Positions 3,658-55,390 of a DNA stretch of 64,000 bases are shown piece after piece. Source of the stretch: a virus. Under the pieces are notes generated by a model, which saw only the letters and a program-made list of their open reading frames with translations, was not told where the DNA came from and did no database searches. Position numbers and translations under genes: made by a program. Each line of letters opens with the position of its first letter. Positions within the stretch are counted from its first letter, which is position 1. The stretch lies in the IMG/VR virus record IMGVR_UViG_3300029788_000157; one strand, 5' to 3'.

Positions 3658-3680
3658 ATGTATAACCTTAATAGTTATAC
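3658..3680 (-). promoter_or_regulatory. motif A (gene-strand consensus AACTATTAAGGTTATACA), 14 nt upstream of the SD/ATG of the ATPase gene
   Basis: tgtataaccttaatagttatac on the plus strand. Confidence 0.45.
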
Positions 3681-3686
3681 TGTATT

Positions 3687-4880
3687 TTAAAGATTGTTAA
3701 GCCAATCCATATCTGCTGAAGAACCACCATCTGTTGTTGCAGATGTATCTGCTTCAGGTGCGTTCATAGCATTTTCTACATTCTGCTCTATTGTTTCATT
3801 AAGATAATCAAGAATTAAATCATCTTCCTGATATTTCTCTTCAAATTTCTGTACAACTGGAATCTTATCATCACCAGTCAGTTTAACCATTGGTCTACGA
3901 AGAATCATTCTCTGTTCTCTACCGCCATTAGATGAACATTTTGCAAGAGCTTCCTCTTCAGTAAATACCCCACAAGCAATCAGGTCTTTAATATCTTCTG
4001 GAATATCGTCCAGAGTAGCCTTCACTGTAGCACCACCTTCAATAAATTCTCCTTCAAATGTAACCTGATTAATTCCTTTCTTAACCTTAAACAGCTTTTC
4101 CATAATTGTTGTACACTGTTTCTGATTAGAAATATCAGGAAACTCATACTCAAACTGTTTATTGTAAGGATACTGACCTTTAATTTCGACCCCATTAAGC
4201 TCTTTCAGATAATCAAGTACGATGCCATCCACATACATAACACCCTTATCCTTATCGTAATTATCTTTCAGATTTGCAGAATCCTTATTAAGCAGTACAG
4301 ACTGTGTAAATCTTGCTGCATACTTGGAAACATCATCGGCTTTGCTAAGTACAATACTTGTAACATTCTTTCTGACCTGAACCTTATCCTGATAACTTGA
4401 ATATTTAAGAACACCCTTAACATTTACTACCATACCATCTTCCAAATGCTCTTTGATATATGCGATTGCATCATAAGGGGCAAGGAATTTCTTATAGAAT
4501 GTACTTCCTTTATCAGTCTTTTCAAGTCCTACAGTTAAAAATGATAAATCACCAACTGTCTCAAGAATCTCATCATTAAATCTATCTTCCCAAGCAACCT
4601 GAATCTGTGTCTCAAAATCATCAGAACCATCTTCTTTTTTGCCATGAGCATAAATTAATCCAGCCTGTTCCTCAGAATAACCGCCCATCATTTCACAAAA
4701 TACTGTTCCAAACTTCTCACCACAATCAATACCAAGATTTAACAGATTGTAAATCCAAGAAGATTTCTCACTCTTCTCATCAATCTTGAAAGTATGCTCA
4801 GTAATTTTGGCAGCTCCAATCAGATTAAAACTTGATACCCAGTCACTTTTTTTGATAACTTTCTTTGTAGTATTTGACAT
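3687..4880 (-). CDS. hypothetical protein of replication/recombination module (possible ssDNA-binding/annealing protein by position)
   Basis: 397-aa ORF between the ATPase and a small basic protein; no clear catalytic motif. Confidence 0.45.
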   Translation of the reverse strand: MSNTTKKVIKKSDWVSSFNLIGAAKITEHTFKIDEKSEKSSWIYNLLNLGIDCGEKFGTVFCEMMGGYSEEQAGLIYAHGKKEDGSDDFETQIQVAWEDRFNDEILETVGDLSFLTVGLEKTDKGSTFYKKFLAPYDAIAYIKEHLEDGMVVNVKGVLKYSSYQDKVQVRKNVTSIVLSKADDVSKYAARFTQSVLLNKDSANLKDNYDKDKGVMYVDGIVLDYLKELNGVEIKGQYPYNKQFEYEFPDISNQKQCTTIMEKLFKVKKGINQVTFEGEFIEGGATVKATLDDIPEDIKDLIACGVFTEEEALAKCSSNGGREQRMILRRPMVKLTGDDKIPVVQKFEEKYQEDDLILDYLNETIEQNVENAMNAPEADTSATTDGGSSADMDWLNNL

Positions 4881-4903
4881 TGTATGTCCTCCTTTAAATT
4901 GAT

Positions 4904-5188
4904 TTATTCTGTAACTGCATTATCAGTCTGAGCCTTCTTTTCTTTAAGCCCTGTTAAAAATGACTTCATTGCTCTTAACTGACGTACAATTAACTTACCA
5001 TTGTCATTGTGACGCTTTTTCTTATTAGATGCTTTTCTGGTAACAACTGTATTGCCCTTCATATCTACAGTTTCAACTCTTTTTGAGTGAACCTTATCCC
5101 ACTCTGCTTTAAAATTCTTTGTGTTTCCATTCTTGCGATAACACTGGTTACGAATTACTTCTCTCTGAAGTTTTCTAAGACTACTCAT
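4904..5188 (-). CDS. small basic protein
   Basis: 94 aa, K/R-rich, preceded by motif A and an SD. Confidence 0.4.
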   Translation of the reverse strand: MSSLRKLQREVIRNQCYRKNGNTKNFKAEWDKVHSKRVETVDMKGNTVVTRKASNKKKRHNDNGKLIVRQLRAMKSFLTGLKEKKAQTDNAVTE

Positions 5189-5218
5189 ATTGTCTTACCT
5201 CTCTTTCTTTTATTTGAT

Positions 5219-5238
5219 GTATAACCTTAATAGCTTAC
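5219..5238 (-). promoter_or_regulatory. motif A
   Basis: tgtataaccttaatagctta; a TATAAT-like hexamer lies ~10 nt upstream in the gene direction. Confidence 0.45.
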
Positions 5239-6674: not shown

Positions 6675-7068
6675 CCTCTTTATCCTCCTGTGAATCAGGA
6701 ATCAACTCAGGATTGTCAAAAATATTACCTACAACTTCTATATTATTCAGACAAATTTCTTTACCTAAAGGATACCATTTATGCTCTGTATAATCCAAAA
6801 ATACATATGCACCATAATCTGAAGAATATGAAATTAAACCAACCATACCCGATTGAATTGCTTTACATATATCTCCCTCAAATATCAACTGTTTATTTTT
6901 ATCCAACAAACCTGTGTCAATTTGATATACATATCTATTCTCTGGTATAAGAGATAAAGTCATATTACCTAAAAGGTTCTTTTTTGCTAAATATAAATCG
7001 TTGTTAGGAGCAAGATAAATATTCTCTTTTACCCATGTAGTTTCCTTTTTGTCATATACTCTATACAT
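6655..7068 (-). CDS. YopX family protein
   Basis: C-terminal GNIFDNPELIP motif typical of SPbeta YopX; start placed at the internal MYRVYDKK to avoid a 70-nt overlap with pnkp. Confidence 0.55.
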   Translation of the reverse strand: MYRVYDKKETTWVKENIYLAPNNDLYLAKKNLLGNMTLSLIPENRYVYQIDTGLLDKNKQLIFEGDICKAIQSGMVGLISYSSDYGAYVFLDYTEHKWYPLGKEICLNNIEVVGNIFDNPELIPDSQEDKEDGQQTL

Positions 7069-9304
7069 TTGCTTCCTCCTGTTCTGCTTTCCATAAGTAA
7101 AATTTCTTTCGGAGATTACAAATATTGGCATATGATTTTGCAGCTTCTTTTTCTTCTGGAGTCATATTTAAGAAAGTTGATTTACACCATCCTAAAAATT
7201 CATTTTCTTCTCTCGTTAATAAACTGCCTGTCCATTTGTAATTACCATATCGTAAAACAGATTGTGCTACTCCTCTTAACTTTTTCCAATACTTATAATA
7301 AAAGAGTTTAAGCTTTGTCATATATCCTACAGAATCTTCTATTACAAATCCCTCTATATCATTACCTTTGTATTTATATCCTTCTGCTGTTACTTCGTTG
7401 TACCAAGCATAAAAATCTTCCCATGATTCAATTACAAATGCCTTTTCTTTTACCTTGATACCTAATTTAGTTGCTAATTGGAATAATTCATCATAAGGCA
7501 ATTTCTCAAACTTCATTTGATTTTTCACTACATCCAATAAAACAACTTTACTTTCTGGATATTCAATAATATGTGGGTCATTTTCCATATCACAACATTC
7601 AAAAACAAATGATACATTATTCTCTTTGATATAATCTTTAATTTTATTCATGGTATCAGTTCCATAAAAGCGATATAAAGCCTGTCTTAAATATTCAGAA
7701 AAGCAGCCTGTAGGTGTTGATTTACTTGTAATTAGCAAATCATCTGATTCTGGATTCCAACCAACAATACCCAAAAATCCATTCTCTTTTACATAAGTTG
7801 TAACTGGGAAATGTAATTTATATTTAAGATTTCCAATTCTAGTTTCAGGTCTTTCATTAATATTAAAGAACTTATCGTATGCTCTGGCTACAATTTTATA
7901 ATCCTGTGTATCAATATAAAGTCCTCTAGCTTTATTCGTAATGGAATCCCATACACCATTTTCAAAAGCCTGTCTTGTGAAATTAAAAGAAGATACTCTA
8001 CCAAATTCTTTTTCAAAAATATATTTGTTCTGTCTTAATTCTGAAACAAAAGAATATACATCAACATCTACATTTTTTGCCATTTCTGATTCTTCAATCT
8101 GTTTTGTTGGTTCTTTAAAAACAGTATTCTGGATTTCAATAGGATATAATTTATCTTCAGTAATCTGAAGAACCCTCAGACATCCACCAAATTCAATTTC
8201 GCCTTCTAAGTTAAAAGTTCTTTCGGTTGTCTGCATAGGTGATTTGACAATATTTCTATGACCATGAATCTGATACATATTATGCGGTGTATTGTCAACA
8301 AATGATTTATCTACAATATCAGCATCCGCATATCTGCCAACACCTTTTATCATCTGTTCTGTTGCAACTTTTAACAAATTATCGTCAGGGAAATTGCTAA
8401 TACCACCATGCGTTACAATAAAAGTTTTTCCTCGATATATAAAATAGCAACACTGATTTAATCTTCGATAAAATTCTCGTACTCTTTTCTGAGATACACC
8501 AGCCTTTACTAACTGTGGCTTTGTCACAAATTCAAATTCTTTTGAACGAGAAATCAGATTATTCGCCCACATCCATAACCATCTCTCATGATTACCTTCA
8601 AGAAAAATAACATTTGGTAATTTACTTAACTCACACAAATAGTTTATTGTTTCTGCATTTTCAATACCTCTATCAATATAATCTCCACAGAATATATAAA
8701 ATTCATCTTCTTTAATATTTTCATTAGAATCCATATACTCTTTAAGAGCTGTATAACATCCATGAATATCACCAAAAACATGAATTTTGTTATACTGGGA
8801 TAAATCCATTGGACGATACCAGATTCTATCTAATTCCTCTGGTTTTAATACAGTAATACCAGATGGAATCTGCTGGGTTTCAAAACGAGAATACATTTTA
8901 TCAATAACTTCTTCAGGAACTCGTTTAAGTGTCTCTCTCTCTGCGTTTCTTCGCTTAGTTTCCTCAATTGGAATATCAGTCATATCAATACAGTAAATTC
9001 TATAACGATAATTTTCAGCCAAATCTTTATACTGATTCATTTCAGATGTCTTTGAATTTGTAGCATCAATCACTGTAAATTCACCATTCTGCATACGTGT
9101 TTCCAATATACGAAACAATGTGTTCCATACAGTTTTTTCATTATTTCCAGAGATAACACATTCTCCATTTATGTCCAATACTGGACTCTGACAAAGCAAA
9201 CGAATATCATCTGCTGATAAAGCATAAGGTTTTAATCCATGCTTTTCAATAAATGTACTTTTGCCACATCCAGCACTACCACGCATAAGTAACAATGCTC
9301 TCAT
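7061..9304 (-). CDS. pnkp: polynucleotide kinase-phosphatase with C-terminal ligase-like nucleotidyltransferase domain (Pnkp-type RNA repair enzyme)
   Basis: N-terminal P-loop MRGSAGCGKST; metallophosphatase motifs GDIHGC, GDYIDRG, GNHE; C-terminal KENG (KxNG motif I of ligases/adenylyltransferases). Confidence 0.65.
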   Translation of the reverse strand: MRALLLMRGSAGCGKSTFIEKHGLKPYALSADDIRLLCQSPVLDINGECVISGNNEKTVWNTLFRILETRMQNGEFTVIDATNSKTSEMNQYKDLAENYRYRIYCIDMTDIPIEETKRRNAERETLKRVPEEVIDKMYSRFETQQIPSGITVLKPEELDRIWYRPMDLSQYNKIHVFGDIHGCYTALKEYMDSNENIKEDEFYIFCGDYIDRGIENAETINYLCELSKLPNVIFLEGNHERWLWMWANNLISRSKEFEFVTKPQLVKAGVSQKRVREFYRRLNQCCYFIYRGKTFIVTHGGISNFPDDNLLKVATEQMIKGVGRYADADIVDKSFVDNTPHNMYQIHGHRNIVKSPMQTTERTFNLEGEIEFGGCLRVLQITEDKLYPIEIQNTVFKEPTKQIEESEMAKNVDVDVYSFVSELRQNKYIFEKEFGRVSSFNFTRQAFENGVWDSITNKARGLYIDTQDYKIVARAYDKFFNINERPETRIGNLKYKLHFPVTTYVKENGFLGIVGWNPESDDLLITSKSTPTGCFSEYLRQALYRFYGTDTMNKIKDYIKENNVSFVFECCDMENDPHIIEYPESKVVLLDVVKNQMKFEKLPYDELFQLATKLGIKVKEKAFVIESWEDFYAWYNEVTAEGYKYKGNDIEGFVIEDSVGYMTKLKLFYYKYWKKLRGVAQSVLRYGNYKWTGSLLTREENEFLGWCKSTFLNMTPEEKEAAKSYANICNLRKKFYLWKAEQEEANV

Positions 9305-9321
9305 ATATAACCTCCTTGTGA

Positions 9322-9340
9322 TGTATAACCTTAATTGTTA
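9322..9340 (-). promoter_or_regulatory. motif A upstream of pnkp
   Basis: tgtataaccttaattgtta. Confidence 0.45.
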
Positions 9341-11344: not shown

Positions 11345-11805
11345 AAGCTTTCCTTTCTATATCCTTTGTTGTTATCGTGTATAAATCTTAATGTGCCACA
11401 TTTCGGACAAATTTTAATTCTCCCATGAATAGATGAGTTGTACCAATCTTTTTCTTCAGTAAGATAACCACAAGCAGCACATTGAATCTTGTTATCAGAC
11501 TTATCGGCAATACCTGAATTTCTTTTCTGTTGTTCTTCAAAGATTCTCGACTCATCTTTTGATAACCACTTAATCCATTTTCCGCAATCTCCACAATATA
11601 ATCCTATTTGATTGCCATTTGCTTTTGTGAAAAGGTCTTTACTATTACATTTCGGGCAAACAAATTCTTTCATACCAACACCTCCTTTTGTCAAAATAGC
11701 CTTATATAAAATTGAACGAGAATTGCTTATTTTGAATTTAAAATTTTTAAGCAACTTCTTCTTTGTCAAATAATCAATCTTCCAATTATAACAATCCTCG
11801 TTCAA
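11341..11805 (-). CDS. zinc-ribbon protein
   Basis: Two CxxC...CxxC pairs (CPKCN...CGDCG; CAACG...CPKCG); true start probably the internal MKEFVCPKC. Confidence 0.4.
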   Translation of the reverse strand: MNEDCYNWKIDYLTKKKLLKNFKFKISNSRSILYKAILTKGGVGMKEFVCPKCNSKDLFTKANGNQIGLYCGDCGKWIKWLSKDESRIFEEQQKRNSGIADKSDNKIQCAACGYLTEEKDWYNSSIHGRIKICPKCGTLRFIHDNNKGYRKESL

Positions 11806-11829: not shown

Positions 11830-12978
11830 TTACTCTGTTAATAATTGAATCTGCTTCTGCATTTCACGTATAACCTTATCAGTTATATCTGTTGTAATAT
11901 TGTCTGGTAGAGTAATTCTTAACGACTTTACTGCTTCTTCATCAGACAATCCTATAGCTTTCAATACATGAGATGGTACTGAGGAATGTGAATTACAAGC
12001 TGAACCAACGGATACATATATATCACACAAATCCAACAAGTATATCATTGCTTCCCCCATTACATTTTGATTAAAAGTAATATTGATATTATTGGGAAGT
12101 CTGTCAGTATATTGACCATTAAGCTTGCAACCAATTTTATCTAACAATTCACCAATCATATAGTCTCTTTGTTTTATTGTTGTAAGATATTTTTTCTGTT
12201 TCATATCTACAGAACATAATTCAACTGCTTTAGCAAATCCCATTATATAAGGAAGGTTCTCTGTTCCACCTCTTAATCCATTCATTTGACTACCGTAAAT
12301 CAACGGACTGATTTTTACATCTTCTTTTTTATATAAGATACCAATTCCTTTTGGTGTACCAATCTTATGTCCACTGGCACTCAACATATCAATTTTAGAT
12401 GCCTTCACATCAATTGGAATATGACCAAAAGCTTGTACTGCATCAGTATGAAATATTGCTCCATATTTATGTACAGTTAAAGCAATATCGTGAATATGTT
12501 GAATTGTTCCAATTTCATTATTTGCATATTGAATAGACACTAAAATATCTTCTCCACTTTTCTGTGAAATCACATATTTTAAAGTATCTTCTAAAGCTCT
12601 TAAATCAATACAACCGTTTGTATCAACATCTATAAAGTGAACATCAACTCCAATACCATCCACACATGACAATATAGATTTATGTTCGATTACAGAAGTT
12701 ATAACTGAAGGTATTCTACCCTTTCTCAAACGATTTTGTACAAAGCCCTGTATCGCCCAACAATTACTTTCGCTTCCACAACTGGTAAAATATACTTCAT
12801 ACATTTCTGAATTAAGGAAGTGTGCTACTGTTTCTTTTGCAGATTTTAATGCATTAGCAGCTTCTTGAGCTGGACTATATAAAGATGATGGATTATACCA
12901 CATATCCATATAAGAATAAATTGTATCTAAAACCTCTTTCTTTGGTTTAGTTGTTGCTGCTTCATCCAGATATATCAC
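11830..12978 (-). CDS. iscS: cysteine desulfurase (class V aminotransferase, IscS/NifS-like)
   Basis: 382 aa; PLP-lysine motif SASGHK; overall IscS-like layout. Confidence 0.8.
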   Translation of the reverse strand: MIYLDEAATTKPKKEVLDTIYSYMDMWYNPSSLYSPAQEAANALKSAKETVAHFLNSEMYEVYFTSCGSESNCWAIQGFVQNRLRKGRIPSVITSVIEHKSILSCVDGIGVDVHFIDVDTNGCIDLRALEDTLKYVISQKSGEDILVSIQYANNEIGTIQHIHDIALTVHKYGAIFHTDAVQAFGHIPIDVKASKIDMLSASGHKIGTPKGIGILYKKEDVKISPLIYGSQMNGLRGGTENLPYIMGFAKAVELCSVDMKQKKYLTTIKQRDYMIGELLDKIGCKLNGQYTDRLPNNINITFNQNVMGEAMIYLLDLCDIYVSVGSACNSHSSVPSHVLKAIGLSDEEAVKSLRITLPDNITTDITDKVIREMQKQIQLLTE

Positions 12979-18976: not shown

Positions 18977-19029
<53 letters not shown>

Positions 19030-19065: not shown

Positions 19066-19308
19066 CTAGAACATTGCTGCAATATCCACACCTGTTAATA
19101 CACAAAGGCAATAAATAATACTAAGCATTGAAATCACACTCAAATATACCCCAAATTTTGTCAGTGCTCTAGTCTTACTGAGTAAAATAATCAATGTGTA
19201 CATGAAAACTGCCAAAGAATAAAACAACAACCAACCAACTCTAATCTTCTGAAAAATTGTTAATAAAAACAATACAATATGCAATACTGCTATTCCAAAT
19301 CCCAACAT
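19066..19308 (-). CDS. small integral membrane protein
   Basis: 80 aa with three hydrophobic helices. Confidence 0.4.
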   Translation of the reverse strand: MLGFGIAVLHIVLFLLTIFQKIRVGWLLFYSLAVFMYTLIILLSKTRALTKFGVYLSVISMLSIIYCLCVLTGVDIAAMF

Positions 19309-20848: not shown

Positions 20849-20869
20849 GGTATCCTCCTTTCGATATGA

Positions 20870-20890
20870 TGTATAACCTTAATTGTTACT
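20870..20890 (-). promoter_or_regulatory. motif A
   Basis: tgtataaccttaattgttact, downstream of a sigma-A/operator promoter. Confidence 0.45.
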
Positions 20891-20912
20891 ATACATAAGA
20901 TACCACACATCT

Positions 20913-20929
20913 ATGTTGTTGTCAAGTAG
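20913..20929 (-). promoter_or_regulatory. sigma-A-type promoter (TTGACA-N17-TATCTT on the minus strand) overlapping operator ATGTTGTTGTCAAGTAG
   Basis: Conserved operator/-35 block. Confidence 0.45.
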
Positions 20930-21912: not shown

Positions 21913-22017
21913 ATTTTTATATTATTCTCAAACGAAAGGAGCTTATTTTATGCTTTTTGAACCTCATAAAAGAGTAATTTTATGTGTACTCAAAGTCCTT
22001 ATTTTAAAGCTTTAAAA

Positions 22018-22040
22018 GGTATAACCTTAATAGTTTGCAT
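22018..22040 (-). promoter_or_regulatory. motif A upstream of the structured leader of the C5-MTase
   Basis: ggtataaccttaatagtttgcat. Confidence 0.4.
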
Positions 22041-26847: not shown

Positions 26848-26860
26848 CTTTCTTTTTTGA

Positions 26861-26880
26861 TATATAACCTTAACAGATAT
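26861..26880 (-). promoter_or_regulatory. motif A upstream of the prs-like gene
   Basis: tatataaccttaacagatat. Confidence 0.4.
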
Positions 26881-28099: not shown

Positions 28100-28396
28100 A
28101 TGGGTAGATACAGTTTAACCTATAATTAGTAGCTAATCTAATTATGTTCTCCTACTGTCTAAAGGATGCACATTTTCATTTTAACCCACGCATTGTCTGC
28201 ATTTACAACACTTGAACACTGACGCAGTTCCTTACGCTATCTTCAATATAGCTGTTTATGTTTCTCCAGTGGCGAACTGGCAATGGTTAGCCAACCCATA
28301 TATAATGAAAATAGTCTAAGCGTTAGATAGATTGCTCTATCCGCTGGAATCGTACCAGCCCATCAACTATTGTTGAATCGAACCTCGCTTATTTCG

Positions 28397-28418
28397 TGTA
28401 TAACCTTAATAGTTATAT
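28397..28418 (-). promoter_or_regulatory. motif A at the head of the minus-strand tRNA operon, abutting the IS right end
   Basis: tgtataaccttaatagttatat. Confidence 0.45.
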
Positions 28419-28547
28419 TGTTAAAAGAAATTTTGTTTTCTATCTCTTAACTTGTGTTTAGTATAGCATATTCGTTTCTACTTGTCAACAACTTTTTTAA
28501 AGTTTTTATCACTTATTTATGTTGTTGTAAAATAGTTACCGTTCCTG

Positions 28548-32803: not shown

Positions 32804-32842
32804 TTATTTTTCCTCCTAAATTAAATTCATACTTGTTTTGAT

Positions 32843-32866
32843 GTATAACTTTGATAGTTATTATAT
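32843..32866 (-). promoter_or_regulatory. motif A (variant) upstream of the SPFH gene
   Basis: gtataactttgatagttattatat. Confidence 0.35.
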
Positions 32867-36230: not shown

Positions 36231-37184
36231 TTATTCTTCGAAAACATCAATATGTCCTTTAACTATTTCTCTAAAAGCTCTAACTTCGTTGTTATAATTA
36301 CATCTTTCCAGCTCTTCAGAAATAATCCTGTGTATTGTTCTGTCTTTCTCTTCTCTTCCAAAGGCTTCCTGTAATGTTATATCATGTTCTGCAAAAATGT
36401 TTTTCAGTCTGTACATGATACCACTTATATATAATTGCATTGGAAGTAAATTATATTCGACATACTCTTCAGAAATCTTTCTCAATTTATTATAGTAACT
36501 AAATTTAACATTTGGAGAATCATTTCTACTTTCCAACTTAAAAACTGTATCTGGATAATCGCCATGCACTTTCATTTCAAATACTCCATAACGATTTTTG
36601 CGTTCCCATGTATCAGTTTGAGATAATTCAATCAAATCTCCGCATAATTCAGATGAAATTTCTAAATCATATCTATGTCCATTTGATTCTTCTAATGTAA
36701 CTTTATTTCCTTGAATGTGAGAACCCCTAAGATTCTTTATTACACTCATATCATTATTATAAATTCCTTCATATAGACAGGAAAATAATGCTTGATAATA
36801 TAACGTATTTAATGGTTCAAAACATTTTATGTCATGAATCACTTCTAAATATTTTTTATGAGATATAAATTTCTGTGCTGCTTTAGGTTTAGCTTTCATC
36901 CATAACACTGACCTGTCCATTGATTGAATCATTTGGTACAGATTATCATTATCAACCAGTCCATCATTTTTTAGCCATTTAGCGTATAACGATAATACAT
37001 AACATATTGTAGTTATATCTTTTTGACTTTTTGGTTTTGAATCCAATATTAGATTCTCCAATTGGATTAGATTGTAATTGATGATGCCATTCCAGTCATG
37101 TTTCGAATTAATTATCGCTGCTTTAACAACCTTTTCCGTATTAGGAGATTCTATTGAGTTTATAAATCTATCTACATTACTCAT
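36231..37184 (-). CDS. hypothetical protein
   Basis: 317-aa ORF downstream of a sigma-A/operator promoter at 37343. Confidence 0.4.
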   Translation of the reverse strand: MSNVDRFINSIESPNTEKVVKAAIINSKHDWNGIINYNLIQLENLILDSKPKSQKDITTICYVLSLYAKWLKNDGLVDNDNLYQMIQSMDRSVLWMKAKPKAAQKFISHKKYLEVIHDIKCFEPLNTLYYQALFSCLYEGIYNNDMSVIKNLRGSHIQGNKVTLEESNGHRYDLEISSELCGDLIELSQTDTWERKNRYGVFEMKVHGDYPDTVFKLESRNDSPNVKFSYYNKLRKISEEYVEYNLLPMQLYISGIMYRLKNIFAEHDITLQEAFGREEKDRTIHRIISEELERCNYNNEVRAFREIVKGHIDVFEE

Positions 37185-37342
37185 GATATGCTCCTTTCTT
37201 TTTCGTTGTTGTTCTTTTATTTCAGCTAATATTATTATACGTAAATTGCCTTAATTTTAGGAACTAACAACCAGATATTTTTTTATTTTTTCTGTAGAGA
37301 TATGTATTTCATCTCTGTATCTATATATTAGCATACATGAGT

Positions 37343-37360
37343 GTAGTTGTCAACAACATT
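37343..37360 (-). promoter_or_regulatory. sigma-A-type promoter (TTGACA-N17-TAATAT) overlapping operator
   Basis: tgtagttgtcaacaacat. Confidence 0.5.
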
Positions 37361-37747: not shown

Positions 37748-37762
37748 ATAATCTCCTTTCAA

Positions 37763-37782
37763 TGTATAACCTTAACAGGTAG
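37763..37782 (-). promoter_or_regulatory. motif A
   Basis: tgtataaccttaacaggtag. Confidence 0.4.
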
Positions 37783-41797: not shown

Positions 41798-41885
41798 AAA
41801 TAAATAATAGCATATAAATTACCTTAAATCAAGTCCTTTTAAAACAAAAAGGGATAAAGCCTTAAACTTTATCCCTTTGCCTTTT
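41798..41885 (+). ncRNA. candidate small RNA (motif A followed ~50 nt later by an intrinsic terminator; no ORF)
   Basis: Plus-oriented motif A at 41777..41797, then hairpin AAAGGGATAAAGCCTTAAACTTTATCCCTTT and a T-run; both flanking genes are on the minus strand. Confidence 0.25.
41848..41878. terminator. bidirectional intrinsic terminator hairpin AAAGGGATAAAG-CCTTAAA-CTTTATCCCTTT
   Basis: GC-containing stem flanked by A-runs and T-runs on either side. Confidence 0.5.
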
Positions 41886-42640: not shown

Positions 42641-42667
42641 TTTCCTTTCCTCACTTTCAACAATTTC

Positions 42668-42695
42668 CCCACTCTGCTTTCATACTGACTTGTGA
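42668..42695 (-). promoter_or_regulatory. motif C (gene-strand GTCACAAG-N16-GAGTGG), candidate alternative-sigma promoter
   Basis: ccactctgctttcatactgacttgtgac. Confidence 0.4.
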
Positions 42696-42753
42696 CAGTT
42701 AATCTTCCAGATTAGTAGCATTAAGGAAGCACACATTTCCATGTGTGCTATAG

Positions 42754-42775
42754 TGTATAACTTTAACTATTATCA
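42754..42775 (-). promoter_or_regulatory. motif A (variant), followed by motif C and then a gene
   Basis: tgtataactttaactattatca. Confidence 0.3.
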
Positions 42776-44712: not shown

Positions 44713-44739
44713 ACTGGTGTACCTCCTTTTCCTAAATTC

Positions 44740-44768
44740 TCCACTCTGCATCTTTATGGGCTTGTGAC
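44740..44768 (-). promoter_or_regulatory. motif C (spacing 16)
   Basis: ccactctgcatctttatgggcttgtgac; SD AAGGAGG and ATG follow. Confidence 0.4.
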
Positions 44769-44807
44769 CATTTGGAATTTCTTCCAAGCTGCATTAAAGA
44801 AAAGGGA

Positions 44808-45676: not shown

Positions 45677-45724
45677 AAGTTTTTCCTCCAACCTTTTCAC
45701 TATTTTTATTCCACTCTGTATTTC

Positions 45725-45755
45725 TCATCAAGGCTTGTGACTTGCATTGGCTACA
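45725..45755 (-). promoter_or_regulatory. motif C (spacing 19)
   Basis: ccactctgtatttctcatcaaggcttgtgac. Confidence 0.4.
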
Positions 45756-45789
45756 TTAGAATTTTTCCAAATAAAAAAGGAAGCTGCTT

Positions 45790-46175: not shown

Positions 46176-46482
46176 AAAAGCCCTCCTTATCTATTGGCTT
46201 GAAATTTTCCAATTAAACCCTCCCACTTTCATGTATGTGGTAACTTCCGTTCTTCCTTTAGGTGTAAAAGAAATTTTCCATCTTTGTCCATCAGAGCCAC
46301 CGCACATTTCGGATGCATGGTTGACTGTACTTTTCTTTTTACACTGAAAACCTAGTGGATGCTATTCTCTTAACAATTAGTAGGACTAGGCGGTGTTCAG
46401 TTGTCGGATTTTCCATCAAGATAAACTACCTTGATTTTAACAATTTTTCCAACCAATATCAATACCTTTTATCTTCTTTTCT

Positions 46483-46510
46483 CCACTCTGCATTTACAAG
46501 GGCTTGTGAC
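46483..46510 (-). promoter_or_regulatory. motif C (spacing 16), immediately after the terminator at 46548
   Basis: ccactctgcatttacaagggcttgtgac. Confidence 0.4.
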
Positions 46511-46547
46511 CTTTAGTGTATAAAATTCTCCACTAGCTGCATTAGAG

Positions 46548-46564
46548 AAGGCGGTTGTCTACCG
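46548..46564 (-). terminator. intrinsic terminator GGCGGUAGACAACCGCC-UUCUCU (minus strand)
   Basis: GC-rich stem plus a U-rich tail, followed by motif C. Confidence 0.5.
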
Positions 46565-48096: not shown

Positions 48097-48158
48097 AATC
48101 CCGACTCCCTGATATTCAGGGAGTTTCGTCTTAATTTTCAAAGACTCATCAGGGGATT
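48097..48158 (-). ncRNA. type I hammerhead ribozyme (HH3)
   Basis: RNA AAUCCC-CUGAUGA-GUCUU UGAAAAUU AAGAC-GAAAC-UCCCUGA AUA UCAGGGA-GUC|GGGAUU; all three helices are canonical. Confidence 0.75.
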
Positions 48159-48416
48159 TTATGCAACTCTTATAACTTCATCTAAATAGATTCTTAAAGA
48201 ACCTTTTCTGATAAAAGCTCTACCAGAAGTTGAGTAGTGTACCATATGTTTATGAAAACCCCACTCATTTTCGCCATTATGCCAACTGCATACATAATCA
48301 CAATCGTATTTATCATTTTCATCAGGTTCGTAAACCTGAAGTCCAAAAGTACCACTGATATATGCAGCTCCTACTGGTTTCTGATTTGCGTATCTTTTAT
48401 ACATAGCTTCCTTCAT
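48159..48416 (-). CDS. hypothetical protein
   Basis: 85-aa ORF with a structured leader. Confidence 0.4.
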   Translation of the reverse strand: MKEAMYKRYANQKPVGAAYISGTFGLQVYEPDENDKYDCDYVCSWHNGENEWGFHKHMVHYSTSGRAFIRKGSLRIYLDEVIRVA

Positions 48417-48528
48417 TTTTATTTACCTTCCTTTTTACCTTTTTATAGGGTTTTCCCTACCCCATCCCCGAAGGGATGGACGCTTGCAACCTAAAGGGCT
48501 ATTTATACACGTTGCAACGTGTTATAAT

Positions 48529-48549
48529 GTATAACCTTAATAGTTATGC
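48529..48549 (-). promoter_or_regulatory. motif A, followed by a 16-bp palindrome and two hairpins before the gene
   Basis: tgtataaccttaatagttatg. Confidence 0.4.
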
Positions 48550-48917: not shown

Positions 48918-49013
48918 CGCCTTCGGTATGTTTAACCCTGATAAGATTTTACACGTATTGCAAATAGTATATACGCAACTTATAACCACATGGGTAGCAC
49001 TCAACTATTTTAG

Positions 49014-49035
49014 TGTATAACCTTATCAGTTAGTA
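49014..49035 (-). promoter_or_regulatory. motif A, followed by motif C and then a gene
   Basis: gtgtataaccttatcagttagt. Confidence 0.4.
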
Positions 49036-49439: not shown

Positions 49440-51200
49440 TTTCCAGATTATTATATATAATTTGTTTCTGCTTTTCTTTTCTATGGGGTTTATTTAAGCT
49501 TTAAAGGGCTTTTATTGTTTTAATGTATATTATATAGGGTTATGGGGTTATATTGATTGTATAGGGCTTTAAAGGCTTTTAAAGGGGTATAAAGGTATAT
49601 AATAGGGCTTGTATAGGTGTATAAGGTTGTACAATGATATAAAAGGGATATAAAGCAGCATACAAGGGATATAAAAGGGCTTCAGGGGGTGGAGCTGGAA
49701 AGAATGAAAAGAGGAAAAGAAAAGAAAATATAATTGCTTTATTGTTTGGGTTTATGGGGTATGGTATGAGGTGGAGGGGTGGACTGTATAAGGGTATAAA
49801 GTGGAGATTATAGGGTTGTTTGTGGGTATGTTTAGGTGTATTTGTGGGGGTTGTATGGTATTATATGGGGTTATATTTATATAAAAGTGGGGGAAAGTAT
49901 GGAAAAATGGGAGTTTTTTGTGGGTTTTTAGCTGCTTTTTTGTGTGGGAGTGGGTGGAAGTCTGGAAAGTTTGGAAGGGGTGGAGGGTGTAAAGGGGTTT
50001 ATTTTATGGGGTTATGGAAGTATCTATATAAATTTTTTGAGCTGGAAAGAATAAAATAATAATCGTTATTATTTTCTGAAAACTTCTATATTTGTTATAC
50101 ATATAGTTATGAATACTATATGAAACAATATTCTATACTATGGGAGGGGGTATTTATATAAATTGAATGTGATAAAAACACAGTCTTTCACATTGAAAAA
50201 ATTAAATCCTTAAAACAAGGGGGTAGGGGGCTATTTTACAAATATTTTTTGATTTGAGCCGACCAGCAGCCGACTGTCTGATAAAACTCTTCCCAACCAA
50301 AAAATTTTTTACACTTATCTTTCATTCTAAATCATCCCAAATCATCCCAAATTACTAAAAATCATCAACATATAACCTAACATTATCTCAACACTCAATC
50401 CACTATTCTCCCTTTATCACATCAACATATATCTTTATGCACAACGGTACAATCAACGGTACAAATCCATCTCTTACTCTCTTATTTACCAAATTATCTA
50501 TCAGAAATCATCTGTTTTTCCTGAATCATATTCCAAATTACAATTCATTCCAACTTATTTACACTACAATCAATATACCAATCTAATCTCATTCTATTTC
50601 AAGCCTAACAAATACCCTCTTATCTTATCCTATCTAAAATACCTAATTTATAATACCATTTAATACTATCTCAACATTCTTAAATAGTTCCAAATATTCA
50701 AACTTAATATCCAGAATATTATTATTCCTCTTTTATTCTTCCTCTATCTCTCTTACCAGAACCGATTCAAATAGCTCAAATTAATCATATGAAACAATCC
50801 AATATCAACTACATTCTAACTACAAGTATATTTTAATCCTTCGCCAGAGAACTTTATTTAACAGAATCTTTATTAAAAAGTATTTAAAATAAAGTTCTAT
50901 TTTTGCTTCTACCGTTAATTATTTCCGTTAATTTATATTCTACCTTAATTTCAATACTTTCTAAATTTTTACCGTCTAATTCGATTTTACATAAAATAAA
51001 GTAATATGGTTTTTACCGTTATTTTCAATCATTTTCGAAGTTATTCATAGGTATCCAATAAGTATCTATTCGTAAGTATCTATTCATTCTTAACTATTCA
51101 TCAAATACTTTGATTACTTTACATAGGTTACTTCCTAAATTTGAGAAAAATCTCGTATAATAATTTTAGGCATCACTTTTAATGTCACATGGCAACAAGA
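49440..51200. other. non-coding hub with mirrored strand composition: plus strand is C-poor and G-run-rich to ~50230, then G-poor and C/A-rich; contains iteron-like short repeats. Candidate replication origin / divergent early control region.
   Basis: No credible ORF over 2.3 kb. G-runs (ggggtggagggtgtaaagggg) on the left; atcccaaatcatcccaaat, ggtacaatcaacggtacaa, gtaagtatctattc x2 and taccgtt repeats on the right. Leftward and rightward gene blocks diverge from here. Confidence 0.5.
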
Positions 51201-51281
51201 TTTTTAACCTCATCTCTCGCCAGAGAGATAACTATTCTTATTGTAATAGGTATCTTATATGTTTAGAACTGCAAAAACGTG

Positions 51282-51342
51282 ACAAGATTTGTACCAGCTT
51301 TTCATACCTTGAGAAAAAGCAGGTACAAGATTTGTACCAGCT
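51282..51342 (+). promoter_or_regulatory. two 18-bp direct repeats (iterons) ACAAGATTTGTACCAGCT, each containing the inverted repeat GTACAA..TTGTAC, upstream of the rep-like gene
   Basis: Copies at 51282..51299 and 51325..51342. Confidence 0.5.
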
Positions 51343-51401
51343 ATTGCGTTTTACCTATAATGTGATTATTTGATAGTGAAATATATTATCTTTCTTGGCG
51401 A

Positions 51402-52286
51402 TTGGAGGTGATTAACATTGCTGAAACAAAAAGTGAATACATACCTGTGCAATTAACAGGGGATGCTGGGAAGTATATTACTATCCCATCTTCTATTATC
51501 TTAAACAAGGATATGGATGTCATGCGTGTTGCAGCTTATTCATTTTTTATGTTTCGAAGAGGATTAGACAGTTGTTTATATTTTTCAATCAATGCAATGA
51601 TACATTGGTTCAACAAAAAGCCCAACAGGAATAAAGGACGTATCAATGATAAATTACTTGGGGTAATTAACGATTTAAAGGACTTGGGGTATTTAACATA
51701 TCCTGAAGATGCATTTACCAAAACAAGTAAAGGTACTGCTCCTATTTGGGAACAATTTGTAGAAGCTTCTTTTGACACAGTTAGTGCTGCACAAGAAAAC
51801 AATCATAATAGATTTGCTATTATTTATCTTGATGAGATAAAGGCTATTATGAATTATCAGGGTAATCCTAAAGATGTGTATTTGAACAGTTTTTCATTAT
51901 TGTTGGTATTTGCTTATTTGCGAATGTCGATTATGCGAAGGTCTAATCAGTATAGATTGGACGAAGATATTCTGGAAAAGCAGATACAATTTCCTGAAGC
52001 TTATAATGATTATTATAAAGATATGGCTGATGAATTGGGAGTGTCTGTACGCACATTTGGAAAAATTGTAAATTGTCTCAGAGATGAATTACATTTGATT
52101 CAGTTCGAGGAAATTGGAAGAACAAAATATATAACTGAAGATGGAAAAGTAAAATGGAAAACCAATCATACTATATTTTGTAATTCCTATAAACGAGAGC
52201 GTGATTATCTACTCACTGATTCAGAATCATATTGGATTACTGAAATAGCAAATAAAAAACAAAAAATTGGAATCAAAGGAGATTAG
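51402..52286 (+). CDS. putative replication initiator / origin-binding protein
   Basis: First gene of the rightward block, directly downstream of 18-bp iterons; track start is TTG embedded in SD GGAGGTG (true start uncertain). Confidence 0.4.
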   Translation: MEVINIAETKSEYIPVQLTGDAGKYITIPSSIILNKDMDVMRVAAYSFFMFRRGLDSCLYFSINAMIHWFNKKPNRNKGRINDKLLGVINDLKDLGYLTYPEDAFTKTSKGTAPIWEQFVEASFDTVSAAQENNHNRFAIIYLDEIKAIMNYQGNPKDVYLNSFSLLLVFAYLRMSIMRRSNQYRLDEDILEKQIQFPEAYNDYYKDMADELGVSVRTFGKIVNCLRDELHLIQFEEIGRTKYITEDGKVKWKTNHTIFCNSYKRERDYLLTDSESYWITEIANKKQKIGIKGD

Positions 52287-52289
52287 AAT

Positions 52290-52472
52290 GTGGATACTTT
52301 AGCAAATAAAATTTCTGATAGTTATTATGAATTATCAGAACGAGATTTTTACCCTCCAGAAGATAAACGCACTTTTCGTTCTGGTGTGTTGAATACTGAT
52401 GGAGATAGTTATGAAGAATTTGCACAAGACTATAATGATATGTGTGAAGAGGAAGAAATGTATGAATTATAA
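52290..52472 (+). CDS. small acidic protein
   Basis: GTG start 6 nt after SD AAAGGAGAT. Confidence 0.35.
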   Translation: MDTLANKISDSYYELSERDFYPPEDKRTFRSGVLNTDGDSYEEFAQDYNDMCEEEEMYEL

Positions 52473-52473
52473 T

Positions 52474-52493
52474 TAACTATTAAGGTTATACGC
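52474..52493 (+). promoter_or_regulatory. motif A upstream of the DxDGD-protein gene
   Basis: aactattaaggttatacgc, 20 nt before the SD/ATG. Confidence 0.45.
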
Positions 52494-52516
52494 TTGATAG
52501 TAAGAAAGGTGAAATT

Positions 52517-55366
52517 ATGTTAGATACTCAAATCAATATATATAGTGTGGATACAGGTAACTTTTATAGTAATCACGAAGCCCATCTACACTGGTTAAAT
52601 CACAAATTGCGTTCCGAAAGAAATGCTTTGGTGCAAAAATCAAAAGATATAACCAGTGAACTTTTTAAATACGGAATTGAGCAAAGTGATTTGGATACAA
52701 TGTTAAAATCTGAATATGATTATTCAGGTTGGGGCGAAGATACAGAACGTATTCAATCTCTTGGAAATGAATATGTCAATCTTAAAGAATTGATTGTCAT
52801 GAAAAACAGAAAAATCAAGTATAGCAAAGATACTCTTTTGCAACTTCTGGAAAATAAAGTCAATGCAAATATTGTTTCTGATGGAAAGCATCATATTCGT
52901 GAATTAAAGGAAAATGATGTTTCTGATAAAAAAATAATTTCTGTGTTTGATTCTTCTTTTACAAGAATGATACACGCACAACCTAATGAACTGTCAGAAG
53001 ATTTTATGGTTGTTCAGGTATATTATTTTGATATAATCAAGGATTTAATATACTACGGATTTACATATAAGGGAGAAAAGTATATTTACTTTACTTCTTC
53101 TGCTGGTCAAATTCGAACAAAGAAAACTGTATTCATTAAAGAGTCAACATGGAAAAAATATGAAAAAACAATTATGTGTGGACTAACAATAGATGTCATT
53201 AATTCAAAAGGTGGTAATAATCCTAATAAGCATTTGGCATACACTGCATTAACCAATTCTGCTACAGATGCATGGGAAGAATTTGATATTGACAAAACGA
53301 TTGTTATTGATGATTTTGAGACAAATGTGTTTGGAACATATGACTTAGTAGATGATGCAGACTATTCTATCAAGCGTGTATCAGATTATGTGCCAATTAC
53401 TCATACTGATGGAGCTGGAATGATGTTACCTCATATGGGTAAAAATAGAATGGTTCGTTTACCTTGGGTAAAAGGACTGCTTGGAAAATTTGATTATGTT
53501 CATTTTATAGAGGTTAATGGTTGCTCTCCTATCATCAAGGACATTTATGGAAAAGAACATGATATTATCGCAGAAGGCATTGAAATCATATTTACAAAAT
53601 CACAATTCAAGATGTGGAAGTATTATGATTCATGGGAGCAATACAAAGAGTATTATAAAAAATATCATTGTACTGCTGGATATACTAATCTTGAAGAGGA
53701 TAGAATAAGAAATGCAAAAATCAATTATCAAATGCTTCAGACATTAACCGATATTACTGATGAGGAGATATTGGAAATTGCAAAACCATCTATCAATAAA
53801 TTGCAAAATCTTTGTTCTTCTGTTGAGAACATTAAAGATGCATTTGGTATTACCCCTTATAATTTACATAAAAATTCGTTTCAAAAGTCTGTAGAGCTAT
53901 ATCCTGACCTATTGAATGACGAATATGTAAAAACACAACTGAGGAATACTAAAGATAGCATGATAAAACAGTATAAGTCTGGAAAATTACAGATTTATGG
54001 AAAGTATACTTTTTTACTTCCTGATTTTTATGCAGCTTGTCAATATTGGTTTCAGGGAATAAAAGACCCTGAAGGATTATTGGCTGACCAAGAAGTATTC
54101 TGTTGGTTATTTAGAAAATCAGATAAGTTGGATTGTTTACGTTCTCCTCATCTTTACAAAGAACACGCAATAAGAAAAAATATTGCATATTGTAAAAATG
54201 AACGTCAAAAACTTATAAGAGAATGGTTTGATACTGATGCCATTTATACCAGTTGCCATGACTTAATTAGTAAAATTCTTCAGTTTGATGTAGATGGAGA
54301 TAAGTCTCTTGTGGTGTCTGACAGGAAATTTATTGAAGTCGCAGAAAGAAATATGAAAGGGATTGTTCCTTTGTATTACAATATGCGAAAAGCATCCCCC
54401 ACTCTTCTAACATCTGAGAATATTTATAATGGATTGGTGGCTGCTTTTACAGGTGGAAATATTGGATTGTATAGTAATAATATTTCTAAAATTTGGAACA
54501 GTGAGGTATTTATTTCAGGAACACCAGAGGAAAAACAAGAAGCTATTGACCTTGTTAAACTACTTTGTATGGAAAATAACTTCGTCATTGATTATGCGAA
54601 AACTTTATATAAACCGCAACGTCCAAAAGATGTTCATGAAAAAATCATTGCTCACACCAAAGAGAATGTTCCTCATTTTTTCAAATATGCAAAGGATAAG
54701 GATGAAGTACAGGTTTCAAATATAAATGCAAGTTTTGTAAATAAGCTAAATAGCATTATCCCAAATCCGAGAATTAATTGTAGGTCATTAAAATTAGGAA
54801 CTATAGATTATAAGTTGCTTATGCACAATCCCGATATTGAATGTCGTGTTGATTTTACTGATAGAGGAAAATTAATAAAGGAAAAGACTGACCCCTTGAT
54901 TGTAAAATATTGTGAGTTGAGTAGCAAACATCATTTTCAAATCAATCTCAACTATAAAGAAAATCTTTCTCCTGATTTAATGAAACATTCTCAAATAGTA
55001 CAAGATTTATTATATAAAAATATTTCAAATGAAATAAAAACAGCTTTATCCGAATTTGGATATAGTGAATCAGAAATAGCTGACATACTTGTAAAATATT
55101 TATACGGAATTAAGAAAAGTAAACACAAAGTTGCATTATGGTTATGTTATGGAAATATCATTTATGAAAATATAAAAGAAAATGGATGTAAAAATAATCA
55201 TAAAAGTATTCAGTGTGTAGATTGCGGAGAATGGTTTGATGTGTTGACAAAAAATAATAATACTTGCAGATGTCCAGATTGTTATGAAGAATATAGAAAA
55301 AATCGTAAATTAGAGACTCAAAGAGCAAGAAGAAACAAAATGAAGTCGGGTCAAAAAATTTTATAA
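52517..55366 (+). CDS. large DxDGD-motif protein; candidate YonO-like single-subunit RNA polymerase (alternative: primase-polymerase)
   Basis: 949 aa; QFDVDGDK resembles the two-barrel RNAP catalytic DxDGD motif; C-terminal CVDCG...CRCPDC zinc ribbon; YopX also present elsewhere in the window. Confidence 0.4.
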   Translation: MLDTQINIYSVDTGNFYSNHEAHLHWLNHKLRSERNALVQKSKDITSELFKYGIEQSDLDTMLKSEYDYSGWGEDTERIQSLGNEYVNLKELIVMKNRKIKYSKDTLLQLLENKVNANIVSDGKHHIRELKENDVSDKKIISVFDSSFTRMIHAQPNELSEDFMVVQVYYFDIIKDLIYYGFTYKGEKYIYFTSSAGQIRTKKTVFIKESTWKKYEKTIMCGLTIDVINSKGGNNPNKHLAYTALTNSATDAWEEFDIDKTIVIDDFETNVFGTYDLVDDADYSIKRVSDYVPITHTDGAGMMLPHMGKNRMVRLPWVKGLLGKFDYVHFIEVNGCSPIIKDIYGKEHDIIAEGIEIIFTKSQFKMWKYYDSWEQYKEYYKKYHCTAGYTNLEEDRIRNAKINYQMLQTLTDITDEEILEIAKPSINKLQNLCSSVENIKDAFGITPYNLHKNSFQKSVELYPDLLNDEYVKTQLRNTKDSMIKQYKSGKLQIYGKYTFLLPDFYAACQYWFQGIKDPEGLLADQEVFCWLFRKSDKLDCLRSPHLYKEHAIRKNIAYCKNERQKLIREWFDTDAIYTSCHDLISKILQFDVDGDKSLVVSDRKFIEVAERNMKGIVPLYYNMRKASPTLLTSENIYNGLVAAFTGGNIGLYSNNISKIWNSEVFISGTPEEKQEAIDLVKLLCMENNFVIDYAKTLYKPQRPKDVHEKIIAHTKENVPHFFKYAKDKDEVQVSNINASFVNKLNSIIPNPRINCRSLKLGTIDYKLLMHNPDIECRVDFTDRGKLIKEKTDPLIVKYCELSSKHHFQINLNYKENLSPDLMKHSQIVQDLLYKNISNEIKTALSEFGYSESEIADILVKYLYGIKKSKHKVALWLCYGNIIYENIKENGCKNNHKSIQCVDCGEWFDVLTKNNNTCRCPDCYEEYRKNRKLETQRARRNKMKSGQKIL

Positions 55367-55372
55367 AAGTCT

Positions 55373-55390
55373 TACAATTAAGGTTATATG
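55373..55390 (+). promoter_or_regulatory. motif A directly followed by an intrinsic terminator
   Basis: acaattaaggttatatgc. Confidence 0.35.

Follow-up and report, generated by a model that had tools for sequence, protein, structure and literature searches.

Which protein reads a short sequence that recurs immediately upstream of genes on both strands of a viral genome? We addressed this question for IMG/VR virus record IMGVR_UViG_3300029788_000157, represented by a stretch of 64,000 nt (hereafter the window). The window is that of an SPbeta-type temperate phage of gut Clostridia and carries 20 copies of an asymmetric, 24-nt element. The repeated element is real, and it is functional. It is most likely the docking site of a repressor rather than a promoter of the phage's own RNA polymerase (RNAP). 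More specifically, we consider it an even call that the element is the operator or roadblock box of a 317-aa MrpR/SroF-type repressor encoded in the window, and as such this phage's equivalent of the SPbeta repeated element (SPBRE) and of Phi3TRE.

A 24-nt element repeated across the window

An earlier note on this DNA had counted 18 copies of the motif, 15 on the minus strand and three on the plus strand. Searching with the core TTAAGGTTATAC and allowing at most one mismatch, we recovered 18 matches with this same strand distribution, whereas shuffled controls yielded a mean of 0.56 matches and a maximum of 4. A position-weight matrix scan added two diverged copies, 15676(−) and 32843(−), each intergenic and facing a gene start, for a total of 20; on shuffled windows, the matrix gave 0.45 hits at a far lower threshold. 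The consensus of the aligned copies, TAAC-W-R-TTAAGGTTATAC-R-Y-Y-A-n-A, is asymmetric and holds ∼31 bits. Counted from the first T of TTAAGG, the conserved block extends contiguously from −5 to +18 (24 nt), and no second conserved block was found at a −35-like distance in the alignment of the window copies.

Nearly all 20 copies are intergenic, and 19 are co-oriented with the local genes. The claim that the motif always lies on the gene strand thus held but for a single copy, 41783(+), which is inverted relative to the neighbouring minus-strand genes. Eleven copies end 15–39 nt ahead of a start codon that has a Shine-Dalgarno (SD) sequence, and three lie directly 5′ of Rfam-detectable RNAs: a Pistol ribozyme, a twister-P1-like ribozyme, and a RAGATH-36-like RNA followed by tRNAs. 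The remaining copies are at or inside the 3′ ends of open reading frames (ORFs) or in longer spacers. The proposed distance of 8 to 25 nt before the SD therefore describes about half of the copies rather than all. Four upstream genes use the TAA inside TTAAGG as their stop codon (9331–9333, 19980–19982, 22027–22029 and 42763–42765), indicating tight packing of the box into gene junctions. According to intergenic-only motif discovery, no intergenic oligomer of the window other than the 24-nt motif is over-represented, which makes it the only conspicuous candidate for the repeated element expected of an MrpR-type phage. The copies, with the labels by which some are cited, are the following.

3654..3677, minus strand: box 19 nt before the start of the AAA_24 (YorG-like) gene 2438–3640
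5213..5236, minus strand: box 30 nt before the start of gene 4904–5188
9317..9340, minus strand: box 18 nt before the kinase-phosphatase-RNA ligase gene 7061–9304; holds the stop codon of a YqeY-like gene
11862..11885, minus strand: box within the last ∼13 codons of an aminotransferase gene; same place in L290, L292 and L337
15670..15693 (label 15676), minus strand: diverged box (22 bits) 16 nt before the LemA gene start; orthologous in L290 and L293
17625..17648, minus strand: box inside the gp49_66-domain ORF 17074–17829; same intragenic position in L290
19966..19989, minus strand: box 15 nt before gene 19318–19956; holds the stop codon of a SprT-like gene
20865..20888 (label 20871), minus strand: box starting ∼3 nt past where transcription from canonical promoter 20925..20897 is predicted to start (operator position)
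22013..22036, minus strand: box overlapping the stop codon of the sigma-factor gene 22027–22548
26856..26879, minus strand: box 23 nt before a nicotinamide adenine dinucleotide-salvage gene cluster (25912–26838 onward)
28392..28415 (label 28398), minus strand: box ∼45 nt after canonical promoter 28488..28460, ∼40 nt into its leader
32837..32860 (label 32843), minus strand: diverged box (24.5 bits) 39 nt before the flotillin-like gene 31196–32803; orthologous in L290
35650..35673 (label 35656), minus strand: box 19 nt before gene 35166–35636; first co-oriented copy downstream of the repressor operon
37758..37781 (label 37764), minus strand: box 16 nt before gene 37391–37747, just upstream of the repressor gene's promoter; orthologous in L333
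41777..41800 (label 41783), plus strand: box, the only inverted copy, at ∼+5..+28 of a minus-strand promoter-like site for gene 41230–41730
42749..42772, minus strand: box, TTAAAG variant, 28 nt before twister-P1-like ribozyme 42727..42666
48523..48546, minus strand: box separated by a 6-nt gap from Pistol ribozyme 48522..48455
49009..49032, minus strand: box 170–330 nt downstream of two leftward early promoters, 49230 and 49382
52474..52497 (label 52480), plus strand: box between a yonP-like ORF and the YonO-like RNAP gene, 25 nt before the RNAP ATG
55372..55395 (label 55378), plus strand: box 6 nt past the RNAP stop codon, with terminator hairpin 55406–55436 another 10 nt on

Box 28398 is followed, 35 nt on, by the RAGATH-36-like RNA and then by three tRNA genes. 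The promoter-like site beside box 41783, near 41830, was read by eye from the sequence as TTGATT-17-TGcTATTAT, and a bidirectional terminator hairpin (41848–41878) lies 54 nt to the right of this box. Box 55378 occupies the most widely conserved position among relatives. The terminator-like hairpins noticed earlier downstream of two copies are real, at both 41783 and 55378. With respect to the latter hairpin (55406–55436), that at 12884–12914 of the near-identical IMG/VR contigs L126 and L128 has the same stems and an inverted loop (GTTTT, against AAAAC in the window).

Beyond the window, extension of the left arm revealed more boxes before genes for a DnaE-type polymerase, a RecD-like helicase and a glycosylase. 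The late region 3′ of the polymerase gene (∼18 kb examined) contains two boxes, one after the polymerase stop codon and one after a YonB-like gene. Only chance matches to the motif were found in cultured or annotated phages and in the literature searched, and in a 14-mer scan of viral contigs any signal was drowned by single chance hits.

Candidate readers encoded by the phage

The gene order is SPbeta-like: a yonP-like ORF, the polymerase and a terminator are followed by HU/YonN, exonuclease/YonJ, YonG, terminase/YonF and portal/YonE. Further SPbeta families include YorG and YopX, and the extensions beyond the window add YonD, YonB, YomW, YomU, YomN, YorH and DnaE/YorL. The window shares ∼99–100% protein identity with IMG/VR contig 3300045988_142724 (130 kb) across the loci fetched, and its relatives are prophages and metagenome-assembled genome contigs of gut Clostridia and Lachnospiraceae.

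Two of the candidate readers, a YonO-like protein and a sigma factor, had been proposed in the earlier note, and both were borne out by Pfam. The 949-aa polymerase (52517–55366, plus strand) matched RdRP above the cut-off and is 43% identical to SPbeta YonO and 52% identical to a protein of Clostridium phage D-1873. The 173-aa sigma factor (22027–22548, minus strand) matched Sigma70_r2 above the cut-off, and its homologues show hits to region-4-type helix-turn-helix (HTH) domains. The third candidate, the proposed reader, is encoded by the following gene.

36231..37184, minus strand: gene of the 317-aa MrpR/YopR/SroF-family (integrase-fold) repressor, with its own canonical promoter at 37353..37325

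The 317-aa protein matched Pfam MrpR_C_cat weakly, and a 75%-identical homologue matched it at E ≤ 1e-5; nearly all of the 216 or more homologues carry PF22823. In a single-sequence search of the PDB, YopR/MrpR of SPbeta were the only matches. An AlphaFold model of the protein (predicted local distance difference test, pLDDT, 91; predicted template-modelling score, pTM, 0.84) was compared with known folds using Foldseek. The top matches were DNA-bound SroF of phi3T (E 3e-10, TM 0.66), YopR and MrpR, with the Cre and lambda integrases far behind (E ∼1e-4). In structural alignment, identity to SroF was only ∼18%. The gene order of integrase-family protein, GmrSD_N and repressor also resembles yopP-yopQ-yopR. 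With high confidence, the 317-aa protein is a structural homologue of MrpR/SroF, the master repressor of SPbeta and phi3T.

The window further contains eight canonical sigma-A promoters on the minus strand, which we term Set A. Their −35 elements start at 49382, 49230, 41222, 40417, 39146, 37353, 28488 and 20925, and they share the sequence cTAC-TTGACA-ACTACAT-N9-TGn-TAnnAT; in many cases GTAGTT, which repeats ACTAC in inverted form, comes next. The repressor gene's own promoter belongs to Set A, whose sequence can be written cTACTTGACAACTACAT. Among relatives, the shared sequence is conserved in L334, present as the variant ACTTTAT in L293 and absent from L335. The repressor gene is transcribed from its own box-free canonical promoter, and it is bracketed by boxes 37764 and 35656. 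The lysogeny/defence island at 36.2–41.8 kb has Set A promoters, and 37764 is its only co-oriented box.

Comparison with known repressor boxes

A protein-binding site had been among the fallbacks of the earlier note. It is now the favoured reading, in that a repressor of the MrpR/SroF fold is encoded and the motif is like validated repressor boxes. The SPbeta master repressor, MrpR, binds ten sites bearing SPBRE. SroF of phi3T binds as a monomer to a 26-bp box, of which 24 bp are read, and clamps round the DNA; boxes vary between phages. Between SPbeta and phi3T, repressor identity is 30% and the two boxes are unrelated. Mapping of the boxes yielded 11 SPBRE copies (134 kb) and, in 50 kb, ∼17 Phi3TRE copies; every one of them points the same way as the genes downstream. 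Several SPBRE sites validated by chromatin affinity purification sequencing (yopM, yopV and the second yonX box), as well as many Phi3TRE copies, have no −35 and end 0–8 nt before the SD. The SD of yonO is directly preceded by a Phi3TRE box in phi3T and by a degenerate SPBRE in SPbeta.

The window resembles SPbeta in phage type, according to synteny and shared protein families, and in encoding a homologous integrase-fold repressor. As for SPBRE, its box is long and non-palindromic, and occurs in at least 10 dispersed copies that are upstream of early/lytic genes and co-oriented with them. By contrast, the sequences are unrelated, the window motif is ∼4× denser (20 per 64 kb versus 11 per 134 kb) and is additionally found behind the polymerase gene and within the late operon, and the host is of a gut Clostridia lineage, not Bacillus. 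Phi3TRE (CAGTAATTTTATTTTTATTCTTAATG) is similar in box length, asymmetry and density. It too is co-oriented, has a copy directly upstream of the yonO SD, and combines promoter-adjacent copies with copies abutting the SD. The promoter-associated Phi3TRE copies lie just upstream of the −35, whereas in the window the two clear cases are on the downstream side of the −10. At the sequence level, the motif was also compared with SPBRE and Phi3TRE, and Set A with SPBRE. Homology was rejected: by-eye alignments of 10/13 and 13/16 were no better than column-shuffled controls.

In mycobacteriophage L5 and Cluster A, a monomeric repressor binds more than 20 asymmetric sites, some at promoters (operators) and others in short gaps between genes (stoperators). 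Only one orientation with respect to transcription supports repression, and the system acts on elongation as well as on initiation. The window likewise has many asymmetric sites whose orientation follows transcription, and we infer a roadblock activity. It differs in that the L5 repressor is unrelated (HTH plus 'stoperator' domain, 183 aa, versus 317 aa with an integrase fold here), its sites span 13 bp against 24 bp in the window, and the hosts are actinobacterial; the window system would be a functional analogue, not a family member. Overall, the element matches validated SPbeta-family boxes in its length and asymmetry, in the number of its copies, and in where and in which orientation they lie, which favours the repressor-box reading.

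Proposed mode of action

In the repressor-box model, a repressor monomer would read the long, non-palindromic box. In a lysogen, the repressor would sit on ∼20–27 boxes before nearly every transcription unit of the replication/metabolism arm, and would also occupy both flanks of the YonO-like polymerase gene and one late-operon site. A box located over a promoter start region, as for 20871 behind promoter 20925 and 41783 behind the site near 41830, would function as a classical operator. A box without a nearby promoter, as for most copies, would be an orientation-dependent roadblock to elongating RNAP, in stoperator fashion. Since most copies are promoter-less yet co-oriented, L5-type stoperator action is the simplest mechanism; binding of the 317-aa repressor to the 24-nt box is accordingly presumed to block elongation in a polar way. 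The roadblocks would insulate the lytic genes from read-through out of the constitutively expressed lysogeny/defence island at 36.2–41.8 kb.

With direct precedents in the same phage family, this model would account for the architecture, lineage restriction and placements of the element, and our confidence in it is balanced between acceptance and doubt. What would be new is an SPbeta-family repeated element in an uncultivated gut-phage lineage, with an unusually promoter-independent distribution that suggests stoperator-like action. If the element is a repressor site, the repeated-element system reaches from Bacillus phages to a large uncultivated group of ∼130–150 kb temperate phages of gut Clostridia, and an operator consensus is at hand for studies of immunity and induction in these phages. 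The promoter-less, co-oriented copies further suggest that integrase-fold clamp repressors silence through polar roadblocks, a mechanism for which the unrelated stoperator repressors of mycobacteriophages are so far the only documented case.

Distribution among relatives

We assembled a sample of 159 polymerase-centred loci (L numbers) and scanned ∼90 tabulated loci with the relaxed consensus TAACTAWTAAnGTTATAY. The consensus was present in 29 of the 39 loci whose RNAP is at least 64% identical, with 1–5 copies per locus and typically on both flanks of the polymerase gene. It was absent from the ∼50 loci with an RNAP at most 60% identical, and from SPbeta and D-1873, save for one 2-mismatch hit common to L163 and L216. 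The motif is kept at orthologous sites before LemA, at the aminotransferase 3′ end, within the gp49_66 ORF, behind the sigma gene and ahead of the RNA ligase; an orthologue search for the RNA-ligase gene recovered only the same phage. In L135, a copy stands ahead of a yonG-like late gene. In L208 (12932–12975) and L227 (12917–12960), the full motif follows the polymerase gene and a perfect inverted copy lies ∼20 nt on (TTAAGGTTATAT...ATATAACCTTAA). L149-type relatives have a 9-bp version of this inverted pair followed by TTTT, such that the motif is the 5′ arm of a terminator-like hairpin.

A different clade (L296, L297, L303, L304 and L309), whose sigma factors are ∼34–39% identical, has its own repeated intergenic box, ATAACAAGAAATACAAG, which abuts the SD of many genes. 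One copy constitutes the exact 17-nt spacer of a perfect TTGACA/TATAAT promoter. ATAACAAGAAATACAAG is probably that clade's own repeated element.

Across relatives whose repressors are 48–75% identical, the motif drifts gradually. As the sigma factor and RNAP diverge in parallel, co-variation of the box cannot be credited to the repressor in particular. Diverged sigma genes escape single-protein and pattern-based locus searches, and an attempt to separate the three candidate readers by presence and absence failed. Whole-locus k-mer enrichment was too noisy in AT-rich DNA and was therefore replaced by intergenic-only discovery and flank comparison.

Evidence weighing against a repressor box

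Several observations count against the repressor reading. First, binding of the repressor to the 24-nt box is so far a prediction. Second, a profile of the repressor family found nothing among PDB sequences at E ≤ 0.01, and homology to MrpR thus rests on the single-sequence hit, Pfam and the fold match. Third, sequence similarity of the motif to SPBRE or Phi3TRE finds no statistical support. Fourth, a sigma-A promoter (TAGACA-17-TATAAT) surrounds about half of the SPBRE copies but almost never the window motif: a strong sigma-A site was found near two of 18 copies, no more often than for random sequence, and the mean score was 8.56 versus 8.35 for random sequence. The overlap with or adjacency to sigma-A promoters that might be expected of a repeated element is therefore not seen in the window; such adjacency is also missing at several validated SPBRE and many Phi3TRE copies, and so is not strictly defining. 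Fifth, the copies before ribozymes, tRNAs and the polymerase gene, together with the purine at +13 after TATAC, fit a promoter equally. Sixth, a second regulator may act at Set A, or Set A may itself be the true repressor box, which would leave the 24-nt motif to another reader. Finally, repressor, sigma factor and polymerase co-occur wherever enough sequence was seen, as in the L335/L211 contigs, and their co-occurrence cannot tell the three candidate readers apart.

A possible promoter for host RNAP

Host sigma-A promoters, and an SPBRE-style promoter-plus-operator, were tried as explanations of the element and rejected, as no hexamers were found at fixed or enriched positions. The SD may begin just 4–5 nt after C12, which excludes TATAC as a −10; the position of the SD limits any start site to ∼+16 or earlier.

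It is rather unlikely, in our judgement, that the element is instead a middle-class promoter read by host RNAP with the phage sigma factor (22027–22548). According to this scheme, Set A drives the early genes including sigma, sigma then directs transcription from the 20 motif sites including that of the polymerase gene, and the late genes are transcribed from a family-wide element described below. Several features would suit such a cascade: the 173-aa protein has region 2 and its homologues a region-4-type HTH, and homologues 40–81% identical are encoded among motif copies in every relative examined (L290, L292, L293, L294, L325 and L335). The sigma gene can be reached by read-through from promoter 28488, and the polymerase operon has only the motif and no canonical promoter. 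Moreover, a sigma-A promoter followed in tandem by the motif is conserved (20925 and 28488; L290; L293 twice), an arrangement typical of early-plus-middle pairs.

With respect to the sequence itself, TAAnGT at positions 2–7 keeps the key −12T, −11A and −7T, and the start would fall on the conserved purine at +13; a −10-like TAAnGT with this start is conceivable for the phage sigma. A bipartite promoter has two elements on either side of a non-conserved spacer of 15–18 nt. By contrast, the element is a single contiguous block without a second element 15–18 nt away, even though the sigma factor seems to own a −35-reading domain, and any bipartite reading turns the most invariant bases into 'spacer'. 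In addition, the phages whose sigma factors are at most 39% identical carry ATAACAAGAAATACAAG, the promoter-spacer copy of which has an operator-like rather than a promoter-like placement. A promoter-plus-operator box, as SPBRE partly is, would reconcile the repressor and sigma readings.

A possible promoter for the YonO-like polymerase

The earlier note had preferred a promoter of a phage-encoded single-subunit RNAP. Here, this would be a T7-style promoter of the YonO-like single-chain, two-barrel RNAP, spanning ∼−17 to +6 with initiation at or just after TATAC; we regard it as quite improbable. It is disfavoured by the lineage restriction of the motif, by the presence of another, family-wide late element, and by a polymerase gene that has the motif as its sole signal.

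The element does have features of such promoters. A 949-aa YonO homologue is encoded, and other phage two-barrel single-chain polymerases use their own conserved motifs beside the start site. The promoters of T7-type and P23-45 two-barrel polymerases are likewise contiguous blocks of ∼20–24 nt near gene starts, in many copies and in phages that have the polymerase, and the block length and the TATA just before a conserved purine are reminiscent of them. Copies flank the polymerase gene in motif-bearing relatives; another precedes the yonG-like late gene of L135, and the late operon has a single one. A polymerase that ignores hairpin terminators, as a domain missing from it may imply, would not be hampered by the terminators that directly follow two copies.

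Unlike such promoters, the window motif does not co-distribute with the polymerase: apart from the L163/L216 hit, it was not found in the YonO-bearing loci with more diverged RNAPs. In clades without the motif, flank comparison found nothing common to both sides of the polymerase gene. SPbeta YonO transcribes the late operon only, from a single start site, whereas the window motif is concentrated in the replication/metabolism arm. The polymerase gene would also depend on the very promoter that its product reads. No canonical plus-strand promoter was found upstream of 51182–55366, only the motif at 52480; this sole signal of the polymerase operon poses a bootstrapping problem for a polymerase-specific promoter.

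The head of the late operon is marked by a different element throughout the family. This 'block 2' lies ∼90–130 nt past the polymerase stop and is of the CTATATGGAGAA or CTATAAGGGAAAC type; it reads TTCATTAGGGGGAAAACAAGCTAATTT in the window (55446–55475) and GTCATAAGGGAGACAGAAAGCTAATTT in SPbeta (L121 10612–10655). A related sequence, TTAATGAGGGTG, follows the HU gene just before the tRNA array (55921–55945 in the window). The SPbeta YonO start site (168 coordinate 2225998) was located on the phage record by primer bracket only: the primer-extension primers place it within L121 11306–11497, an interval that contains the SPbeta counterpart TCATTTATGAGGGTG (11405–11430). The family-wide CTATATGGAGAA/TTAATGAGGGTG element is thereby a candidate YonO promoter on sequence grounds, a by-product of this work that gives the still-undefined YonO promoter a concrete candidate.

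We likewise assign a low probability to the 24-nt block being the YonO-type RNAP promoter of the subclade, possibly overlaid by a repressor box. If true, it would be the first promoter consensus for this polymerase family, and a YonO-type enzyme would transcribe the replication/metabolism genes as well, starting upstream of host terminators and reading through them.

A possible RNA-level element

That the motif acts in RNA, as a leader hairpin (AUAAC-N7-GUUAU), a processing site or an antisense pairing target, is highly improbable. The element would always be transcribed with its genes if read-through happens, and its surroundings are rich in self-cleaving ribozymes. There is one inverted copy in the window, and there are full inverted pairs after the polymerase gene in L208 and L227; in the antisense variant of this reading, inverted copy 41783 places the exact complement into the leader of gene 41230–41730. 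Nevertheless, among 108 distinct copies of the hairpin ATAAC-N7-GTTAT, 149 deviations in the 5′ arm left 37 still pairable and the 3′ arm was invariant, revealing no covariation. Predicted folds were weak (−1 to −9 kcal/mol) and differed between copies, no Rfam family was found over the motif, and its distance to the SD and start codon is variable. The RNA hairpin or leader structure was rejected for want of covariation, and the 'leader RNA element' of the earlier note, for which there was no stable common fold either, found no support. The probability left over after the four readings falls to dual or unknown functions.

Ribozymes and other features of the window

A cluster of ribozyme candidates lies on the minus strand among small early genes (42666–42727, 44738–44800, 45708–45762, 46480–46548, 48118–48172 and 48455–48522). 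Its members comprise the Pistol ribozyme, above the gathering score, a weak hammerhead III hit and four twister-P1-like hits of 42–64 bits, just below the gathering score (E 5e-6 to 3e-12). Pistol or twister ribozymes are also located upstream of the polymerase gene in L149 and L208. The RAGATH-36-like RNA (28211–28362, minus strand; 60.9 bits, E 1e-9, below the gathering score) is just downstream of a Cas12f1-like TNB-domain (TnpB-like) gene (28548–29849, minus strand) and upstream of the three tRNA genes; it may be related to that gene as a guide RNA.

Two tandem repeats were also found. The gene at 33647–34867 (minus strand) encodes a pentapeptide-repeat protein with a C-terminal DUF5758 and contains a 15-nt coding tandem repeat (34007–34589) of ∼39 units with 91–93% matches. 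A perfect (CT)22 microsatellite occupies 18984–19027, in the spacer between genes 17819–18973 and 19066–19308.

Finally, an ORF-poor stretch of ∼1.7 kb (49500–51180) coincides with a strand switch and a turn in GC skew, with the leftward early promoters on one side and the rightward polymerase operon on the other. Repeated TGGAAAATT-like words were hinted at by a k-mer scan of L128. The pac site of SPbeta lies between yonR and yonP, and the ORF-poor stretch could be an origin or packaging region.

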